Below, piece after piece: positions 2,403-10,506 of a stretch of 52,112 nucleotides of DNA. Every line of letters begins with the position of its first letter. The stretch's first letter is position 1. Source of the stretch: Acidobacteriota bacterium (lineage in GTDB: Bacteria > Acidobacteriota > Aminicenantia > Aminicenantales > UBA4085). The position numbers were made by a program, and so were the translations under genes. The stretch covers positions 1-52,112 of the forward strand of contig JAQULS010000002.1 of assembly GCA_028749235.1 (NCBI GenBank). Reading direction: 5' to 3'. Below the pieces are notes generated by a model. It was not told the DNA's origin, ran no database searches, and saw nothing but the letters and a program-made list of their open reading frames with translations.

Positions 2403-3662
2403 CTAGCGGCGGCGTTTGAAAATCAAACGGAAAGTCCCCGGCATATCCGCCAGGGTGCCGTTCATGAGGTAGAAATAGGTCGTGATCCAATTGGCCAGGA
2501 TCATGGCGATCCCAAACAGGAACATGCCGACGCTGAGAAGAGCCCAGCCCGAGAAGACGTTGCCGACGACGCATCCGGTCGCCAATCCCGCCCCCACGCC
2601 TACCAGGAATCCTCCCCCCGCCGCCGTCACAACCTGGCTGGGAGGCTTCGGAGACAGCCGGATGCGGCCCGACAAGGACGCCGCGGCTAGTGCGCCAGAG
2701 AAAAGCCCGCCCGTGACAAGCACCAACCACCAGGTGATCTTCTTGGCTCCGGCCGCGACCTTGGACGGAGTCGGGGAAGCCGGTTGCGAGGCGGCGACGG
2801 GCGGACCAAAGACATGAACGAACTGGTTATCCGTGACGAGCTCCTGGATGTTGAGAACGCCATGGGTGATGCCGATTGGATAGTTGCGCCCCGAGGCGGC
2901 CGAAGAGATCAGGGAGAGGGCGACCATGACACCGATCGCCAACCCAGCCTGCCAAGGCTTCCACGGTCTCGTCAGCAAGGAGCTTTTCGTCCCCGAGCCG
3001 GAGCCGCCGGACGGACTCGATGCGGTCCGGCGACGGAAGAGGATGGCGAGGAGCACGGTTCCAGCGGAGAGAATCGCGGCCCAGGCCCAGAACGGCATTC
3101 CGGTCAATGACGGCAGGGTCACGGGACCGCCGCTTGATGAAACCGATTTGACGGATTTGAGTGCCCCGCTGATCTTCGTCAGAGGGCCGTGCTCGACAAA
3201 GGCGATCCCCGCGGGGATCGTGAGGAGAGCGACGATCGAATTCAGATTGCCTCCAGCCGCCTTGTAGAGGCAGCCGCTGATGCACCCGCCGGCAAGCACT
3301 GTTCCGGTGCCAAAGATCAAGCCGCCCAGGATATAGCTAGCCCAAAGTAAAGGCTTGGGCGCAAGGGTCACCCATCCCACCGCCTGGGCGGCGGCGAAGA
3401 GCGACATGGCTGTAACGATCGCCGTCCAAAGACCGAAGGATTTCCGCCCGTCGCGCATGAGCAGGACCTCGCTGAAGGCTGAGGCCCCGCAGAGATCGCC
3501 CTTGGCCAAGAAGAATCCGAATAATTGTCCGACGGGAACGGCCGTCCAAATCCACTGCCGAGTCATCACCGCGGCCAGAAGAAAGCCCAGCGCGGCCAGA
3601 ACGTTCAGCCAGAACAGGAACCATCGCGGACGGCGGTCGAAGTCTTTCTCGGATGCAATCAT
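2403..3662 (-). CDS. YeeE/YedE family sulfur-compound transporter-like membrane protein
   Basis: Two conserved Cys-loop motifs, GGCISGCLYKAAGG and ATGCVVGNVFSG, in a polytopic protein. Confidence 0.8.
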   Translation of the reverse strand: MIASEKDFDRRPRWFLFWLNVLAALGFLLAAVMTRQWIWTAVPVGQLFGFFLAKGDLCGASAFSEVLLMRDGRKSFGLWTAIVTAMSLFAAAQAVGWVTLAPKPLLWASYILGGLIFGTGTVLAGGCISGCLYKAAGGNLNSIVALLTIPAGIAFVEHGPLTKISGALKSVKSVSSSGGPVTLPSLTGMPFWAWAAILSAGTVLLAILFRRRTASSPSGGSGSGTKSSLLTRPWKPWQAGLAIGVMVALSLISSAASGRNYPIGITHGVLNIQELVTDNQFVHVFGPPVAASQPASPTPSKVAAGAKKITWWLVLVTGGLFSGALAAASLSGRIRLSPKPPSQVVTAAGGGFLVGVGAGLATGCVVGNVFSGWALLSVGMFLFGIAMILANWITTYFYLMNGTLADMPGTFRLIFKRRR

Positions 3663-3671
3663 TGGGGCCCT

Positions 3672-4697
3672 CTAAAAAATAAGGTTGAACATGAATCCGA
3701 CAATCATGATACCTGTCGCGACAATCCCGAAGAAGGTCAGAAGAAGAGGGATTTTAAGCACCTTGCGAAGGATGACGGCCTCTGGGAAGGACAAGCCGAT
3801 GACGGCCATCATGAAGGCCAAGGCAGTGCCGAGCGAAGCGCCCTTCTCGAGCAGGGCTTGGACGATGGGGATGATGCCCGCGGCGTTGGAATAGAGGGGC
3901 ACGCCGATCAGGACCGACAACGGCACCGACCACCAGGCCGACTTGCCCATGATCGAGGCCATGAAGTTCTCCGGAACATAGCCGTGGACAACGGCGCCGA
4001 CCGCGATCCCGCCGACGACGTAGGGCCATACTTTGCCGACGATTTCCCGGACCGCGGTCTTCCCCGCCGCGACCCGGTCAGCGAAGGCGGTCCGGCCTTC
4101 TTCCAAGGAGGACGCGCCGCCTTTCATCTCGTAGACCCACGGCTCGACCCATCTCTCCAGCCGCAAGCGGCCGATGACCCAGCCGGCCAGGATCGCGATC
4201 GTTAGGCCGGTGGCCATATAAAGCAAAGCCGTTTTCCAGCCGAACAAACCAAAGAGAAGGACGACGGCGACCTCGTTGATCATGGGCGCCGCGATCAGGA
4301 AGGAGAACGTGATCCCCAGGGGTATGCCGGCTTCGACGAAGCCCAGAAACAGCGGCACGGCCGAGCAGGAGCAGAAGGGGGTGACGATGCCCAGGGCGGA
4401 GGCCATGACGTGGCCCAGGAAAAGAGAGCGGCCCTCGAGCAGCTTCCGCGTCCGCTCCGGAGCAAAATAGGTCCGGATGATCCCGATCACGAAGACGATC
4501 AGGACGAGGAGCAGGAGGACCTTGGGGGTATCGAAGAGGAAAAACCGGACCGATTCAGCCAGATGCCCTCCAGGCCGTAAGCCGAGCAGATTGAACGTAA
4601 GGGCCTTGGAAATCCATGCCAAGTTTGCATACAAGGCGACCCAGACACCGACTAAAACAATGGGAAGAACTATGCGAATTGGAGATCTTTTATGCAT
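3672..4697 (-). CDS. UPF0718/ArsP-like permease
   Basis: Polytopic protein with the TPFCSCSAVPLF motif typical of this permease family. Divergent from arsR. Confidence 0.8.
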   Translation of the reverse strand: MHKRSPIRIVLPIVLVGVWVALYANLAWISKALTFNLLGLRPGGHLAESVRFFLFDTPKVLLLLVLIVFVIGIIRTYFAPERTRKLLEGRSLFLGHVMASALGIVTPFCSCSAVPLFLGFVEAGIPLGITFSFLIAAPMINEVAVVLLFGLFGWKTALLYMATGLTIAILAGWVIGRLRLERWVEPWVYEMKGGASSLEEGRTAFADRVAAGKTAVREIVGKVWPYVVGGIAVGAVVHGYVPENFMASIMGKSAWWSVPLSVLIGVPLYSNAAGIIPIVQALLEKGASLGTALAFMMAVIGLSFPEAVILRKVLKIPLLLTFFGIVATGIMIVGFMFNLIF

Positions 4698-4764: not shown

Positions 4765-5154
4765 ATGATCGAGATGCTGAAAGTTTTCAAAGCCCTCTCT
4801 GACCGGACCCGTCTGCGAATCGTCCGGCTCCTGATGAAACAGGAGTTGTGCGTCTGCGAGATGATGTTCATCTTGAACTTGGCCCAATCCCGTCTCTCCC
4901 ATCAGCTCCGGATCCTGCGGGACGCCGGGCTGGTCGAAGACACGAGGGACGGCCAATGGATCATCTATCGGATCTCCCCCGGGACTCGGGCCATAATCGC
5001 CGAGCTTTTGGCGGTCTTCGCGCGGGATAAGGCAAATCGTCCGGACGAGGAAGCCGCGGACCGGAAAAAACTGAAGGCTTGCCTGGAGAAGGGCCTACGC
5101 AAGAAAAAGCCCCTGTCGCTGATGTCGGGACGGGAAGCGTCGGGCTCAATCTAA
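4765..5154 (+). CDS. arsR: ArsR/SmtB family metalloregulator
   Basis: ELCVCEM metalloid-binding motif, and the wHTH segment LSDRTRLRIVRLL...SHQLRILRDAGLV. Confidence 0.88.
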   Translation: MIEMLKVFKALSDRTRLRIVRLLMKQELCVCEMMFILNLAQSRLSHQLRILRDAGLVEDTRDGQWIIYRISPGTRAIIAELLAVFARDKANRPDEEAADRKKLKACLEKGLRKKKPLSLMSGREASGSI

Positions 5155-5169
5155 AAACAGGAGGATGAC

Positions 5170-5415
5170 TTGGATATTAAAGTTTTAGGCATGGGCTGCG
5201 CCCGCTGCCATGATCTCGAAAAGCGGGTTCACCAGGCTTTGGCCGAGGCCGGAGTGGCGGCCGAGGTCGAGAAAGTCGAAGACATCCAGAAGATCATGAC
5301 CTACCGGGTCATGGCCACCCCCGGCCTGGTCATCGACGGCGTCGTTAAGTCCGCGGGACGAATTCCTTCGGTCGAAGAAATCAAAAATTGGATTCAGGAG
5401 AAGAAAACCCAATGA
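5170..5415 (+). CDS. Thioredoxin-fold redox-active disulfide protein (small, cytoplasmic)
   Basis: 81 aa with the GMGCARCH CxxC motif. TTG start with AGGAGGA upstream. Confidence 0.8.
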   Translation: MDIKVLGMGCARCHDLEKRVHQALAEAGVAAEVEKVEDIQKIMTYRVMATPGLVIDGVVKSAGRIPSVEEIKNWIQEKKTQ

Positions 5416-5903
5416 ACGCCAAGAACATCATTTCCCTGCTCGGCATGGCCGCGGTATTGGTCTTCCTTTCGGCCGCATCCACGAACGCGTCCATGGCCTT
5501 CTCCCCTGAACCGGTCACACCTGAAGCGGCCGATTCCGGGCCGATATCTTCGGACCCGGCCCAAATCCAATCGGCAGCCGAGGGAACCGTCCTGGTCACC
5601 GACAACCTGAACATCGATTTTTCCAAGCACCTGGTCACTTTCATCGAGTTGGGCGCGGACAAGTGCATCCCCTGTAAAGCCATGCAGCCGATCATGAAGG
5701 AGATCGCCGCGGAGTATAAGGGCCAAGTCCAGGTCGTTTTTTACGACGTCTGGAAGAACCCGGAACCGGGCCGCAAGTACGGCATCCAGCTCATCCCGAC
5801 CCAGGTCTTCATCAACAAGGGCGGGAAGGAAGTCTACCGGCACACCGGGCTGTTTCCCAAGCCGGAGCTGGTCGCATTTCTGAAAAAGCAAGGCGTCCGC
5901 TAA
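5412..5903 (+). CDS. Secreted thioredoxin-family protein
   Basis: Signal peptide MNAKNIISLLGMAAVLVFLSAASTNA and the CIPC active site. ATGA overlap with the previous stop. Confidence 0.8.
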   Translation: MNAKNIISLLGMAAVLVFLSAASTNASMAFSPEPVTPEAADSGPISSDPAQIQSAAEGTVLVTDNLNIDFSKHLVTFIELGADKCIPCKAMQPIMKEIAAEYKGQVQVVFYDVWKNPEPGRKYGIQLIPTQVFINKGGKEVYRHTGLFPKPELVAFLKKQGVR

Positions 5904-5918
5904 GGGATCGGCGGCATC

Positions 5919-6608
5919 ATGAACGGCCTTTTCGGCGACGTCGCCCTGCTTCTCCAGAACAATCCCTGGCTGGCGGTCGTCGCGGTTTTCTTCGGCGGCG
6001 TCACCACGGCGCTCAATCCCTGCGTTCTGGCGATGATCCCGCTCTTGATGAGCGTCGTGGCAGGCAATCGGGAAACGACGACCGTGAAGCGCTCGCTGGT
6101 TTTCTCCCTGTTTTTTGTCCTGGGCTTGGCCGTGACTTTCACCGTTCTGGGCCTCATCTCCGCCCTCCTCGGCCGCATGTTCGGAGACATCGGCGCCTTC
6201 TGGAAATACATCGTCGTTGCGGTTTGCCTGGTCATGGGGCTTCACTTGTTGGGCCTGTTTCCGTGGAAGCTCGGCTTTTCAACAGGCATCCGGGTTCACA
6301 AGCGTGGCTTCCTGGGCGCTTTCCTGCTGGGGCTTCTTTTCGGCGTCGTTTCGACCCCCTGCGCCGTTCCCATACTGGCCGTGCTGCTGGCCTTCGTGGC
6401 CGAGAAAGGGAATGTCGTCTACGGCGGATTCTTGCTATTCGTCTACGCCCTGGGCCATTCGGCCCTCATCCTCGTCGCCGGGACGTCCGTCGGCGCAGCC
6501 AAGGCCCTCTTGGAGTCCAAGGGGCTGAGGAAAGCCCACGGTGTCATCCAGAAAATCGCCGGCATACTGATCATCGGCATCGGGCTGTATTTCCTGTTCG
6601 GGAAATAA
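5919..6608 (+). CDS. ccdA: Cytochrome c biogenesis / thiol-disulfide electron transporter CcdA (DsbD core)
   Basis: Conserved PC motifs LNPCVLAMIPLL and STPCAVPILA in a 6-TM protein. Confidence 0.85.
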   Translation: MNGLFGDVALLLQNNPWLAVVAVFFGGVTTALNPCVLAMIPLLMSVVAGNRETTTVKRSLVFSLFFVLGLAVTFTVLGLISALLGRMFGDIGAFWKYIVVAVCLVMGLHLLGLFPWKLGFSTGIRVHKRGFLGAFLLGLLFGVVSTPCAVPILAVLLAFVAEKGNVVYGGFLLFVYALGHSALILVAGTSVGAAKALLESKGLRKAHGVIQKIAGILIIGIGLYFLFGK

Positions 6609-6714
6609 ACCCGCTCGATACCCCGGGCTAAAGCCCGGGGTATGAACAGGGTTAATACTGAGCGGCGCTCATGACCCCGATTTGAAAATCGGAGTTTCAG
6701 CGCCGCGAACGTAT
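6609..6714 (+). repeat. Copy A of a ~106-nt two-hairpin intergenic element
   Basis: Near-identical to 49132-49237. Hairpin 1 at 6618-6643 (ATACCCCGGGC/GCCCGGGGTAT). Hairpin 2 has outer stem GCGGCGCT (6662-6669) / AGCGCCGC (6699-6706) and inner stem CCGAT/ATCGG. Starts immediately after the ccdA stop. Confidence 0.85.
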
Positions 6715-6753
6715 GACGCCGATGCGAGCAAACGAATCGAAAGGAGACGCGTT

Positions 6754-7809
6754 ATGACTCCCGGGAACACTCGTCTCAAGCTGCTGGATCGTTACCTGAC
6801 CCTGTGGATCTTCGCGGCCATGGCCGTCGGCGTCGGCCTGGGCTACTTCGTCCCCGCCATAGTCGGGTTCATCAACAAGTTCCAATCGGGGACGACCAAC
6901 ATCCCCATTGCCGTCGGCCTGATCCTGATGATGTACCCGCCCCTGGCCAAGGTGAAATACGAGGAACTGGGCGACGTCTTCCGCAACGGCAAGGTCCTGG
7001 CGCTGTCTCTTGTCCAGAACTGGATCATCGGTCCGATCCTGATGTTCGGGCTGGCCGTCGTCTTCCTCCATGGCTATCCCCACTACATGTACGGGCTGAT
7101 CATGATCGGCCTGGCCCGCTGCATCGCCATGGTCATCGTCTGGAACGAGCTGGCCCACGGCGACACGGAATACGCGGCCGGACTGGTGGCCTTCAATTCC
7201 ATCTTTCAAGTTTTGTTCTTTTCGGTTTACGCCTACGTCTTCATCACCGTCCTGCCCGGCTGGTTCGGGCTTAAAGGGACGGCCGTCGCCATCACCATCG
7301 GCCAAATCGCCAAGAGCGTTTTTATCTACCTGGGCATCCCCTTCCTGGCCGGGATCATCACCCGGTTCACGATGCTCAAGCTCAAGGGCAAGGCCTGGTA
7401 CGAGACCAAGTTCATCCCCCGCATCAGCCCCATTACGCTCATCGCCCTGCTCTTCACCATCATCGTCATGTTCTCGCTCAAGGGCGAGTACATCGTTAAG
7501 ATCCCGCTCGACGTCTTGCGGATCGCCGTTCCTCTCGTCCTCTACTTCGTGATCATGTTCCTGGTCTCGTTCTTCATGAGCCGCAAAATCGGCGCCAACT
7601 ACGCCAAGACCGCGACCCTCTCCTTCACCGCCGCCAGCAATAATTTCGAACTGGCTATCGCCGTGGCCGTGGCCGTCTTCGGCATCAATTCGGGCGAGGC
7701 TTTCGCCGCCGTCATCGGCCCGCTCATCGAGGTGCCGGTCATGATCGGCCTGGTCAACGTGGCCCTCCGCCTGCGCAGGCGCTGGTTCGCCTCCGAGGCC
7801 GGGGCGTAA
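6754..7809 (+). CDS. acr3: Arsenite efflux transporter, ACR3 family
   Basis: [21 protein letters not shown] and [11 protein letters not shown] regions typical of Acr3. Start chosen at MTPGNTR, preceded by AAGGAG. Confidence 0.9.
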
Positions 7810-7829: not shown

Positions 7830-9137
7830 ATGGCTGAAGGCGGACGAAATAGGGACGAGGCCGCGATCCGCTCGGCCGCGGCCGGGGCCGACCGGCCTAC
7901 TCCCCGCCGCTTCTTGAGGGCTGGCGGGGGCCGGATCGTCCTGCCGGCCGACCTGGCTAAAAAGATCGGCGCATCTGCCAGCGCCCGCTTGGAAATCCGG
8001 GAGCGCGATGGACGGCTCGAGATCCGCCCCAACATCCACAGCCTTTCCCGCCTCTATATCGAACCGACGTCCCGCTGCAACCTGGCCTGCCGGACCTGCA
8101 TCCGGAACACGTGGCGAGAGCCGATGGGCGACATGTCCTGGCTCTTGTTCCAGCGGCTCGCCTCCCAGCTCGGTGCGTTTCCCCATCTGGAATCGGTCAT
8201 GTTCGCCGGATTCGGCGAGCCGACCGCTCACCCGGACATCCTGCGCATGATCCGGGCCGTCAAACGCCTCGGCCTGCGAACTGAGATCACGACTAACGGG
8301 ACGCTCCTCGATGCGGCCATGATCGACGGCCTGCGGCGGGCCGGATTGGATGTCCTGTGGGCCTCCTTCGATTCCGCCGGCGAGGCCGGCTTCGAGGACA
8401 TCCGGCGCGGGGCCAAGTTCCGGCCGGTTGTCGCCGCGCTGCAATCGCTCCAAGCCGGGAACGCCAAGAGTCGCCACGCCATCAAGATCGGGTTGTCCTT
8501 TGTCGTCATGCGCCGCAACGTGACCGATCTAGGGGCACTGGACGACCTGGCCCGGCAGATCGGCGCCGACAAGGTCCTGGTCAGCAACATCCTGCCGTAC
8601 TCGGCCGAGATGGAAAAGGAGATGCTCTGCTCCCTGACCCTGTCCACGGGAACGTTCGCCGCCGCGCCGGCCAAGACGGAAGTCCGCTTGCCCCGTATGG
8701 ACGTCACCCCCGCGACCCGGGAAACGATCCTCCGCCTCCTGCGCGGGTACGAAAATCTCAATCTGATGGGCAATCCCATCTTCGCCGAGACGAACCACTG
8801 CCGCTTCATCGAGGGCAGGACGACCTTCGTCCGCTGGGACGGAGCCGTATCCCCGTGTATGGGGCTCCCGCACGGGTATAAGACTTTTCTTTATGGGTAC
8901 GAGCGGAACATCAAGCCTCACGAATTTGGCAATATCGGCCGCAAGTCGCTGGGCGCAATCTGGCGCTCTCCGGCTTATCAGAGCTTCCGGGAGAAGGTCC
9001 GCGACTTCGACTTCGCGCCTTGCCACATCTGCGGCGGATGCAACCTGTTGGAATCAAACGAGGAAGACTGCCAGGGCAACGGATTCCCCGCCTGCGGCGG
9101 ATGCCTCTGGGCTCAGGGCGTCATCCAGTGCCCGTAG
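7830..9137 (+). CDS. Radical SAM / SPASM-domain enzyme with N-terminal AbrB/SpoVT-like domain
   Basis: CX3CX2C (CNLACRTC, 8076-8099). C-terminal Cys-rich SPASM-like tail CHICGGCNLL...CQGNGFPACGGCLWAQGVIQCP. N-terminal RIVLPADLAKKIGASASARLEIRERDGRLEIRP resembles a swapped-hairpin AbrB fold. AAGGAG RBS. Confidence 0.8.
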   Translation: MAEGGRNRDEAAIRSAAAGADRPTPRRFLRAGGGRIVLPADLAKKIGASASARLEIRERDGRLEIRPNIHSLSRLYIEPTSRCNLACRTCIRNTWREPMGDMSWLLFQRLASQLGAFPHLESVMFAGFGEPTAHPDILRMIRAVKRLGLRTEITTNGTLLDAAMIDGLRRAGLDVLWASFDSAGEAGFEDIRRGAKFRPVVAALQSLQAGNAKSRHAIKIGLSFVVMRRNVTDLGALDDLARQIGADKVLVSNILPYSAEMEKEMLCSLTLSTGTFAAAPAKTEVRLPRMDVTPATRETILRLLRGYENLNLMGNPIFAETNHCRFIEGRTTFVRWDGAVSPCMGLPHGYKTFLYGYERNIKPHEFGNIGRKSLGAIWRSPAYQSFREKVRDFDFAPCHICGGCNLLESNEEDCQGNGFPACGGCLWAQGVIQCP

Positions 9138-9251
9138 ATGAACGCGCTGAATTCCCATTTTGGAATGCCCCTTCCGGCCCGGTTTTCGATATGCTCATAA
9201 GAGCGCATTGGAACCCATCAACCTTGGGATGAGAATTGGAGGAACAAAATC

Positions 9252-9425
9252 ATGAAGAAAAATGAAGAGAAGAAGGGCCTGTTTGCACGCTTGATCGGAC
9301 GCTCAAAAACAAAGTCAAGCCCTTGTTGCGGCGGCGCGGTCAACGAAGCGACGCCTGAAGAAAACAAAGACGGCAAGGAAGAAGGGAAAGCCCCTAAAGA
9401 CAAAAAGCCTTGCTGCTGCGGATGA
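9252..9425 (+). CDS. Unannotated 57-aa Lys/Glu-rich peptide with CC and CCC clusters
   Basis: ATG preceded by GGAGGA (9238-9243, 8-nt spacing). Translation is MKKNEEKKGLFARLIGRSKTKSSPCCGGAVNEATPEENKDGKEEGKAPKDKKPCCCG. Below the 60-aa cutoff of the ORF track. Confidence 0.5.
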   Translation: MKKNEEKKGLFARLIGRSKTKSSPCCGGAVNEATPEENKDGKEEGKAPKDKKPCCCG

Positions 9426-9515: not shown

Positions 9516-9791
9516 ATGGTCGATCCGCGCCTGCCCTTCCCCACCCGCAAGGTTGCCGTCCCGGACGGTTCGGTGGAGGTCTACATCATCCCCGACGACC
9601 AGAGAGAGGCCGTGTTCAAGAAGCTCTACCCGTTCCGACCGATTCCGCCCTTGAACAGGACCGTGGAGGATATCCACGCCGAAAAGAAATTCAAGATCAA
9701 GGATTTCATAGTCGTTCGCGAAGGCAGCATGAATATGCTGGTCAGCCCTTACTATTTCGAGAGCGGCGGATCGGTCATCGACTGGTTATAG
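9516..9791 (+). CDS. Hypothetical protein (91 aa)
   Basis: Strong GAGGAGG RBS and non-artefactual composition. No motif that I recognise. Confidence 0.55.
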   Translation: MVDPRLPFPTRKVAVPDGSVEVYIIPDDQREAVFKKLYPFRPIPPLNRTVEDIHAEKKFKIKDFIVVREGSMNMLVSPYYFESGGSVIDWL

Positions 9792-9808: not shown

Positions 9809-9837
9809 TTGACATATTAACATATCGCGAATATGCT
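9809..9837 (+). promoter_or_regulatory. Sigma-70-like promoter of vapBC
   Basis: TTGACA (9809-9814), 17-nt spacer, TATGCT (9832-9837). The vapB ATG at 9845 lies 7 nt after the -10 box. Confidence 0.45.
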
Positions 9838-9844
9838 TATATGC

Positions 9845-10072
9845 ATGAGAACCACCCTGAACATCGATGACTCCGTCATGAGACGCTTGAAACAGGAAGC
9901 GGCCCGCCGGGGGACAACGATGTCGGAATTGATGGAATCCGCCCTCCGGCTTCTGCTGCGAGAAGAAAGACGGCATGTCGAATTGCCTCCAATCCCCACT
10001 TTCCACCTCGGCGGCGAACTCGTGGATATCGCCGACCGCGACGCTCTCTATGACGCCATGGAAGGCCTCTGA
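9845..10072 (+). CDS. vapB: Type II antitoxin VapB (RHH-like)
   Basis: MRTTLNIDDSVMRRLKQEAARRGTTMSELMESALRLLL is typical of this antitoxin family. Overlaps the vapC start. Confidence 0.75.
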   Translation: MRTTLNIDDSVMRRLKQEAARRGTTMSELMESALRLLLREERRHVELPPIPTFHLGGELVDIADRDALYDAMEGL

Positions 10073-10506
10073 TGTTCGTCGTCGATACGAACATCCTCGT
10101 TTATGCGGTCAACGAAAATTCCCCGTTTCAGAAAGCCTGCGGGGAGCGAATCGCGGAGTGGCAAGGACAGGATTCGGCCTGGTATCTGACCTGGGGAATC
10201 GTCTACGAATTTCTTCGGGTCGTGACCCATCCGAGAATTTTTCAGAATCCGCTTTCGGCAGGCCCGGCTTGGAGTTTTATCGAATCTCTCCTGGCCTCCC
10301 CCTCGCTCGACATGCTCGTCCCAACGAATAGGCACGCCACGATCTTGGCCCAGGTTCTGGCCCAAGCGCCGCTCTTGAAGGGAAATATTATTCACGACGC
10401 CCATACGGCGACCCTAATGCGGGAGCACGGAATCCGCCGCATCTACACCCGCGACACGGACTTCCACCGCTTCGCCTTCCTCGAACCCGTCGATCCGACG
10501 GCCTGA
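10072..10506 (+). CDS. vapC: PIN-domain toxin VapC
   Basis: MFVVDTNILVYA N-terminus plus conserved acidic residues (DAHTATL...YTRDTDF). Confidence 0.85.
   Translation: MFVVDTNILVYAVNENSPFQKACGERIAEWQGQDSAWYLTWGIVYEFLRVVTHPRIFQNPLSAGPAWSFIESLLASPSLDMLVPTNRHATILAQVLAQAPLLKGNIIHDAHTATLMREHGIRRIYTRDTDFHRFAFLEPVDPTA

Follow-up and report, generated by a model that had tools for sequence, protein, structure and literature searches.

What is the role of a 57-codon gene with paired cysteine codons that lies behind a radical S-adenosylmethionine (SAM) enzyme gene in an arsenic resistance (ars) operon? The question arises at positions 9252–9425 of contig JAQULS010000002.1 of an Acidobacteriota bacterium (assembly GCA_028749235.1), within a stretch of 52,112 nucleotides that we refer to as the window. 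The original prediction, made from the sequence, offered two non-exclusive readings of the encoded peptide: that it is the precursor of a ribosomally synthesized and post-translationally modified peptide (RiPP) matured by the adjacent radical SAM enzyme, which has a SPASM domain, and that it is a thiolate ligand or chaperone for trivalent arsenic.

The peptide gene and its family

The open reading frame (ORF) is as originally described: re-read from the sequence, it extends on the forward strand from an ATG at 9252 to a stop codon at 9423–9425, encodes a product of 57 amino acids (MKKNEEKKGLFARLIGRSKTKSSPCCGGAVNEATPEENKDGKEEGKAPKDKKPCCCG), and is preceded by a Shine-Dalgarno sequence (GGAGGA, 9238–9243) with an 8 nt spacer. 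Purine tracts resembling Shine-Dalgarno sequences are also located 5′ of the orthologs at three related loci (L005, L061, and L062). The translation confirms that the five cysteines (C25, C26, C54, C55, and C56; 5/57, or 9% of residues) lie in two vicinal clusters, each preceded by proline: PCCGG at codons 24–28 (9321–9335) and PCCCG at codons 53–57 (9408–9422), both positioned on a 64-sequence family alignment. Codons 5–17 (EEKKGLFARLIGR; 9264–9302) correspond to a conserved N-terminal basic amphipathic helix that may bind the membrane or the permease described below, and codons 29–37 (AVNEATPEE; 9336–9362) to a degraded form of an acidic motif, FEIEEIPEE, of which only P35, E36, and E37 are left. 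An AlphaFold model built from the same alignment has a mean predicted local distance difference test (pLDDT) score of 57 and a sole helix at residues 8–15, and the hydrophobic moment is highest over residues 8–21. The product is predicted to be a small and mostly disordered cytoplasmic protein, in agreement with the earlier expectation that the sequence outside the clusters is probably disordered.

A word-indexed search found two homologs of the window peptide, P0002 (66% identity) and P0003 (51% identity). P0003 comes from an AT-rich genome and its coding DNA is completely recoded; the reading frame is kept between an AT-rich genome (L001) and GC-rich genomes. Synonymous-biased variation had been suggested as a check, and the ratios of nonsynonymous to synonymous substitution rates (dN/dS, Nei-Gojobori method) between the window gene and its three closest orthologs are 0.18–0.26. 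Across all six pairs they are 0.18–0.65, every one below 1, and those of the flanking radical SAM gene are 0.13–0.23. We conclude that the gene is still under selection, and that the ORF at 9252–9425 is a genuine conserved gene rather than a chance ORF.

The window peptide has no match in Pfam or NCBIfam. A three-sequence profile scored against 1.84 billion protein representatives recovered 61 cluster representatives at E≤1e-3, 16 of them at E≤1e-10, and almost all are 50–60 amino acids long. A 43-sequence family profile extends this to at least 197 clusters at 90% identity, so that the profile search proposed with the original prediction returned a broad family in which the cysteine clusters are kept; the window peptide belongs to it both by its length and by its match to the family hidden Markov model (HMM; E=2.4e-22, 75 bits). 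The source names among the 197 clusters are all 'hypothetical protein' or 'uncharacterized', save for one evident mis-call ('seryl-tRNA synthetase'), and among the organisms named as carrying a member are Sporomusa silvacetica DSM 10669, Desulfitobacterium sp. AusDCA, Desulfosporosinus, and Phosphitispora fastidiosa.

The consensus sequence of the family reads M..EKKGLFxRLxG.KK.KKSSCC[GC].FEIEEIPEE....K..SCC[GK]. Among 163 members, 95% have the N-terminal K-x-G-hydrophobic-hydrophobic motif, 86% have EE[IVLM]P, 79% have two or more CC clusters, and 67% have CC within the last five residues; in some members the CC-FEIEEIPEE module is present in two or three tandem copies. In the 64-sequence alignment C26 is invariant and C25, C55, and C56 are each conserved in at least 90% of sequences, and the mean cysteine content of the family is 7.3%. 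The window copy has the EKKG-hydrophobic-hydrophobic-x-R-L feature (EEKKGLFARLIG) and both clusters, with one CC after a Lys-rich linker and one at the C-terminus, and lacks the acidic motif. Comparison of the family profile with sequences in the PDB gave as its best hit an insignificant segment of BamC (E=0.42), and no selenocysteine (TGA) variants of the CC motif were seen across all fetched loci. We found no description of the family in Pfam, NCBIfam, the PDB, or the searchable literature, including searches with literal motif strings, and the earlier statement that no ars-operon component of this kind is described therefore stands. These sequences point to a widespread and undescribed family of small double-cysteine proteins.

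Coupling to type-B ArsP_1 permeases

The gene for P0003 is located 45 nt 3′ of a gene for a 297-residue ArsP_1 permease, in an ars island that also encodes CGGC, ArsR, Thioredoxin_3, GcvH, two DGC proteins, OsmC, Acr3, and ArsC; the 10 kb to each side contain no radical SAM gene. ArsP_1 permeases fall into two distinct types with about 60–67% identity within a type and ~31% between types A and B, and earlier work had already distinguished two arsP clusters that probably differ in function (PMC6205960). The permease next to P0003 is representative of what we see elsewhere. We collected genome loci with a degenerate DNA pattern for CC-x4-[ILV]EE[ILV]P[DE]E, using one genome per species; of the 49 matches about half were chance matches inside unrelated genes, which the family HMM removed, leaving a family member in 25 species genomes. 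These include Clostridia, Syntrophomonadaceae, Sporomusa, Desulfotomaculaceae, Anaerolinea, Ignavibacteria, Planctomycetota, Nitrospiraceae, Spirochaetaceae, and Aminicenantes. A type-B permease gene (~297 codons) is situated upstream on the same strand in all 25, at a distance of 90 nt or less in 22 and with overlap in some. Within the 8-kb blocks around these loci, Acr3 is encoded in 14 and ArsR in 13. Cultured strains with the intact arsP(B)-peptide pair include Sporomusa silvacetica DSM 10669 (SPSIL_046720), Sinanaerobacter chloroacetimidivorans BAD-6, and Desulfitobacterium sp. AusDCA.

The reciprocal comparison started from 80 metagenome loci that were fetched by alignment to the type-B permease alone, 77 of which have enough downstream DNA to be scored. 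An HMM-positive peptide is encoded directly 3′ of the permease in 45 of the 77, and among the 32 scored as absent there are eight with the peptide module fused to Thioredoxin_3 and three with divergent copies (L106, L107, and L141); two more of the 32 encode, respectively, an ArsM-like methyltransferase and a CC-headed domain, both described below. The module, free or fused, is therefore present in ~56 of 77 type-B loci (73%, counted without de-replication). The usual position of the peptide gene, within ars islands of anaerobes, is immediately 3′ of the type-B permease gene, to which it is genetically coupled; the two genes are often close enough for translational coupling. Residues C66 and C68 of a TPFCxCS motif are invariant in the type-B permease alignment, and type-B permeases score far under the cut-offs of all named NCBIfam permease models. 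The 52-kb window has no type-B arsP gene, as judged by tblastn and by comparison with types A and B; the adjacency is thus missing here, and is found at the related locus L062.

The fused forms bear on the chemistry of the module. In the eight metagenome loci the module (METKKENKKGFWASLFSPKPCSCSCG..IIEE...CCCG) is fused N-terminally to Thioredoxin_3 to give proteins of 131–141 residues; these are encoded at L108 4920–5315, at L134 3740–4165, and at six similar loci from human-gut or other metagenomes. A metagenome-assembled genome of Sedimentibacter encodes a 212-residue fusion with DUF2703, a 'DF family (seleno)protein' with a thioredoxin-like fold (L054 989–1627). In P0167 the module is joined to an unannotated domain of ~70 residues, which is also found alone, as an 82-residue protein headed by CC, 3′ of a type-B permease gene (L080 3341–3589). 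At a further locus an ArsM-like methyltransferase gene (L110 2272–3123) lies directly after the type-B permease gene, at the peptide's usual position, and the N-terminus of the enzyme has a CC...CC arrangement (GCCSDSPACCG). The fusions to thioredoxin-fold domains hint that the module is tied to thiol chemistry.

The radical SAM gene and the history of the locus

The gene preceding the peptide gene (7830–9137, forward strand) encodes an AbrB/MazE-radical SAM-SPASM protein, as assigned with Pfam and NCBIfam. The protein scores best against TIGR04317, 'tungsten cofactor oxidoreductase radical SAM maturase', without reaching the cut-off (287 versus 380 bits), and it falls short of the cut-off of TIGR04311 too; the closest homologs are named Candidatus Aminicenantes or Acidobacteriota. 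About 1960 homologs score at E<1e-30, and the gene is a conserved member of ars operons in Aminicenantes and Acidobacteriota, usually right after acr3. We encountered it in ars loci of the window and of L055, L057, L059, L062, L066, L067, L015, L053, and L054, and a literature search turned up no report of SPASM-type radical SAM enzymes in such operons. The earlier placement of the peptide gene behind this enzyme, on the same strand as arsR, trx, ccdA, and acr3, is correct, and the spacer measures 114 nt.

We recovered relatives of the window locus via the radical SAM protein and via the nearest peptides. At L057 (enzyme 83% identical) the order is arsP(A) / arsR-trx3-trx-ccdA-acr3-rSAM (the last being the radical SAM gene), then a gap of 72 nt, and then orf97-125aa-YtxH-enolase; at L055 (84%) it is acr3-arsM-rSAM-gcvH-DGC-DGC-OsmC within a longer gene series; and at L059 (81%) arsR-acr3-rSAM is followed by 214 nt without the peptide ORF. 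At L062 the order is rSAM-gcvH-DGC-DGC-OsmC-arsP(B)-peptide-orf97-125aa-YtxH-enolase, where the peptide is P0125, the type-B permease has 295 residues and is ~70% identical to other type-B proteins, and the DNA is collinear with the window on both sides. L005 and L061 have the order rSAM-peptide-orf91-vapBC, as in the window. The original prediction had staked itself on the gene being present at syntenic loci of relatives, and this is borne out in part: the peptide is encoded at L005, L061, and L062, and is absent from L055, L057, and L059.

Because L062 has five genes between the radical SAM and peptide genes, the arrangement in the window looks like a deletion product in which these five were lost and the peptide was kept. 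The junction is the intergenic region 9138–9251 (114 nt, forward strand), the putative deletion site, where relatives carry gcvH-DGC-DGC-OsmC-arsP(B). The simplest history, we infer, is that an accessory module ending in arsP(B)-peptide was situated after the radical SAM gene, and that the window clade lost all but the peptide. A candidate 3′ remnant of arsP(B) within 9138–9251 ('SGPVFDMLI', which by eye resembles the permease C-terminus 'AGLIFNVLV') was rejected, as a three-frame HMM search gave no match. The closeness of the peptide gene to the radical SAM gene is probably a secondary accident, and we see no sign in these loci that it reflects peptide maturation.

The three orphan copies (in the window, L005, and L061) keep the N-terminal helix and both cysteine clusters intact. 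Their acidic motifs have lost the hydrophobic positions, reading AVNEATPEE, AVDCDSPDE, and TANEPAPEE, versus FVIEKAPEP in L062. The window copy therefore appears to be an orphaned, somewhat degenerate, and divergent member of the family.

The remaining genes around the locus were assigned with Pfam and NCBIfam. On the forward strand, upstream of the radical SAM gene, are arsR (4765–5154), a Thioredoxin_3 gene of the 'MTH895/ArsE family' (5170–5415), a gene for a secreted thioredoxin with an N-terminal hydrophobic segment (5388–5903), a DsbD_TM/CcdA gene (5919–6608), and the acr3 arsenite efflux transporter gene (6682–7809; TIGR00832, 460 bits versus a cut-off of 283). Downstream of the peptide gene, also on the forward strand, a 91-residue ORF (orf91, 9516–9791) belongs to no family in Pfam or NCBIfam. 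It is very strongly conserved (dN/dS 0.05–0.10), and its place at the end of the ars locus is kept in all relatives examined (L005, L057, L061, L062, and L063). A vapB (RHH)/vapC (PIN) toxin-antitoxin pair (9833–10506, forward strand) lies between orf91 and DUF948-like, YtxH, and enolase genes; L057 and L062 lack this insertion, which is confined to the orphan-peptide clade (the window, L005, and L061).

The minus-strand genes between 463 and 4697 make up a second ars-type operon, divergent from arsR and found in the same order at L055. They encode a type-A ArsP_1 permease of 341 residues, next to arsR (3672–4697; Pfam ArsP_1, E=3e-72; ~30% identical to type B), a YeeE/YedE-like Sulf_transp protein (2403–3662), a small cupin (2011–2343), an ArsP_1-like permease split in two genes (1544–2047 and 963–1574), and an LMWP-type ArsC (463–966). 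The GcvH-like-DGC-DGC-OsmC module is absent from the window. It is a recurring element of ars islands in unrelated genomes and in many cases immediately follows the radical SAM gene (L055 9390–11428; L062 1667–3701; L066 8443–10227; L001 4736–6765); a literature search for it found nothing.

A proposed thiol partner of type-B ArsP

The balance of these observations inclines us, by a small measure, to the reading that the peptide is a disordered partner of type-B ArsP, whose vicinal thiols would hand trivalent arsenicals over at the membrane. ArsP exports trivalent organoarsenicals, and the peptide's usual neighbour resembles ArsP of the Campylobacter jejuni type in being an ArsP_1 permease with a TPFCxCS thiol pair, although type B is only ~30% identical to the type-A ArsP of the window. 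A literature search found no description of an accessory peptide for ArsP. The second of the original readings, in which trivalent arsenic is bound or chaperoned by the peptide's thiolates, agrees with all of the context found and seems to us the best fit.

In such a mechanism the N-terminal basic amphipathic helix (EEKKGLFARLIG) would hold the peptide on the inner membrane face or on the permease. The C-terminus of MinD is a membrane-targeting amphipathic helix (PMC8155659), and that of Escherichia coli MinD (EEKKGFLKRLFGG) and the predicted peptide helix are both short and basic; the peptide helix differs in being N-terminal and in an unrelated protein, and the likeness is one of short motifs rather than of homology. 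It is because of this likeness, together with the helix being the sole one predicted and the hydrophobic moment being highest there, that we propose an anchor to the membrane or permease. The vicinal thiols (CC or CCC after the Lys-rich linker, and again at the C-terminus) would then capture trivalent arsenicals, with methylarsenite presumably bound by two thiols and arsenite by three, and the arsenical might be passed to the invariant TPFCxCS thiol pair of the permease in a step like that of ArsD, albeit without homology to ArsD. The acidic FEIEEIPEE stretch may be a docking element; its decay after the permease was lost fits such a role, as seen in a single evolutionary event. The orphan peptide of the window is probably still a membrane-proximal, arsenic-binding thiol ligand, serving Acr3, the type-A ArsP, or the operon's thioredoxin-type proteins.

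ArsD is a folded thioredoxin-fold dimer, whereas the peptide is a chain of ~57 residues, disordered but for one short helix in the AlphaFold model, and has no ArsD match in Pfam or the PDB; we therefore do not regard it as a member of the ArsD family. The two nonetheless appear to share a logic. ArsD binds As(III) via Cys12, Cys13, and Cys18 and has extra C-terminal vicinal pairs (PMC4562236), and arsD is nearly always adjacent to arsA (PMC6205960); the peptide is likewise a small cytoplasmic ars-operon protein, with its CC/CCC clusters and tight permease adjacency, but its partner is a secondary ArsP_1 permease and that of ArsD the ArsA ATPase. In this sense the peptide resembles an ars accessory thiol protein or chaperone without being homologous to ArsD.

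Four other explanations need to be set against the proposed hand-over of arsenicals to the permease. That the peptide is a RiPP-like precursor, whose cysteine clusters are cross-linked or otherwise modified by the adjacent AbrB-radical SAM-SPASM enzyme, now seems highly improbable, even though the two genes adjoin on the same strand in the window, L005, and L061, homologs of the enzyme are encoded in the same island at L015, L053, L054, and L104, and the two or three tandem CC modules of some members recall multi-core precursors. SPASM enzymes commonly act on Cys-rich peptides, and the small cysteine peptide gene beside a SPASM radical SAM gene gives the window a likeness to SCIFF, ranthipeptide, and sactipeptide loci. 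The constant neighbour of the family, however, is the type-B permease, and the suggested test for co-occurrence with homologs of the 7830–9137 gene came out negative: these are found at only 3 of 25 genome loci (L015, L053, and L054) and 1 of 80 metagenome loci, ~4% overall, so that over 95% of family loci have no radical SAM gene in the fetched DNA. Conversely, five ars loci have the enzyme and no peptide, namely L055, L057, and L059, which are syntenic, and L066 and L067, which are more remote (enzymes 60–66% identical). Adjacency is limited to one clade and is explained by the loss of the five intervening genes; the nearest models of the enzyme, TIGR04317 and TIGR04311, describe protein or cofactor maturases; no PqqD-type recognition domain was detected in it with Pfam or NCBIfam; the peptide matches no known precursor family in either database; and the fusion of the module to thioredoxin-fold proteins is unlike RiPP precursors. 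We accordingly reject membership among RiPP precursors. Since the enzyme occurs at loci without the peptide, the radical SAM protein and the peptide are two independent components of ars islands, and the enzyme is a conserved ars component of this lineage rather than the dedicated partner of the peptide; its target could be a neighbouring protein or an arsenical. We also think it very unlikely that the window gene is a functionless and decaying leftover of a deleted arsP(B)-peptide pair. The missing permease, the degenerate acidic motif in all three orphans, and a dN/dS of 0.65 in one orphan-orphan pair would fit decay, but the frame, the Shine-Dalgarno sequence, the N-terminal helix, and both cysteine clusters are intact in three orphans diverged at dS 0.6–1.2, dN/dS against the window is 0.18–0.26, and the L061 copy has gained a third CC.

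The two remaining explanations retain the thiols but assign them other tasks. We give some, though limited, weight to a redox relay, in which the cysteines alternate between the dithiol and disulfide states in exchange with thioredoxin-fold proteins encoded in the islands (Thioredoxin_3/ArsE-like, DUF2703, or Trx/CcdA), and which could keep the CxC of the permease reduced or reduce pentavalent organoarsenicals before export. The natural fusions to Thioredoxin_3 (eight metagenome loci) and DUF2703 (L054) speak for it, as does the repeated presence in these islands, that of the window among them, of genes for Thioredoxin_3, Trx, and CcdA; yet most members stand alone beside the permease with no thioredoxin gene adjacent, no selenocysteine variants occur in the fetched loci, and a disulfide between vicinal cysteines is strained and seldom serves as a catalytic couple. 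Such a relay is also compatible with arsenic binding, and is not an exclusive alternative to it. A passive metalloid buffer, that is, a metallothionein- or phytochelatin-like cytoplasmic sink for arsenic or another thiophilic metal with no hand-over, is rather unlikely. Cysteine clusters in a charged and disordered chain, co-regulation with ars genes, and the persistence of the window copy without a permease are all as expected of a sink, but the very tight and often overlapping coupling to one permease subfamily is not, and conservation of the N-terminal helix and of the acidic motif suggests that docking is specific. The cysteine content (9% here, merely ~7–9% in general, with the family mean of 7.3%) also compares with ~20–30% in CxC/CxxC arrays, and there is no Pfam metallothionein match, for which reasons we discarded a place among metallothioneins or phytochelatins.

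Returning to the peptide as a thiol partner of type-B ArsP, several points weigh against it. The motif scan selects copies of the FEIEEIPEE type and is blind to degenerate orphans such as that of the window, and the metagenome loci are not de-replicated. About one quarter of type-B permease loci have no detectable peptide, and therefore the permease can function alone. Among named NCBIfam models, type B comes nearest to a Cu/Zn efflux family and to SaoE, scoring far below the cut-off of each, and the true substrate could be another thiophilic metal or metalloid. Lastly, the window copy lacks both the usual permease and the acidic motif, and may therefore act differently today from other members of the family.

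Whichever role applies, the family is broad and unannotated: neither Pfam nor NCBIfam has an entry for it, and gene callers frequently overlook its members. The locus also illustrates that gene adjacency can mislead, as the pairing of radical SAM and peptide genes here looks to be an artefact of deletion. Among the exporters known for trivalent organoarsenicals, methylarsenite included, ArsP-type permeases are the principal ones, and each is regarded as a single-gene system. As a possibility that we hold tentatively, these peptides are a new and non-homologous class of arsenic metallochaperones, disordered and helix-anchored, that together with type-B ArsP would make up an efflux system of two components, found widely among anaerobes, human-gut Clostridia included, and would constitute a new ars gene, with the thioredoxin-fused forms as its redox-coupled variant. 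If the partnership is correct, it would explain the difference between the two ArsP subfamilies and provide a second arsenic chaperone after ArsD, structurally unrelated to it. A translationally coupled Cys-rich partner would then add an unrecognised component to arsenic detoxification in many anaerobic phyla, the lineages concerned including Bacillota, Aminicenantes, Anaerolineae, Ignavibacteria, Planctomycetota, Nitrospirota, and Spirochaetota, with the module also present in human-gut metagenomes.

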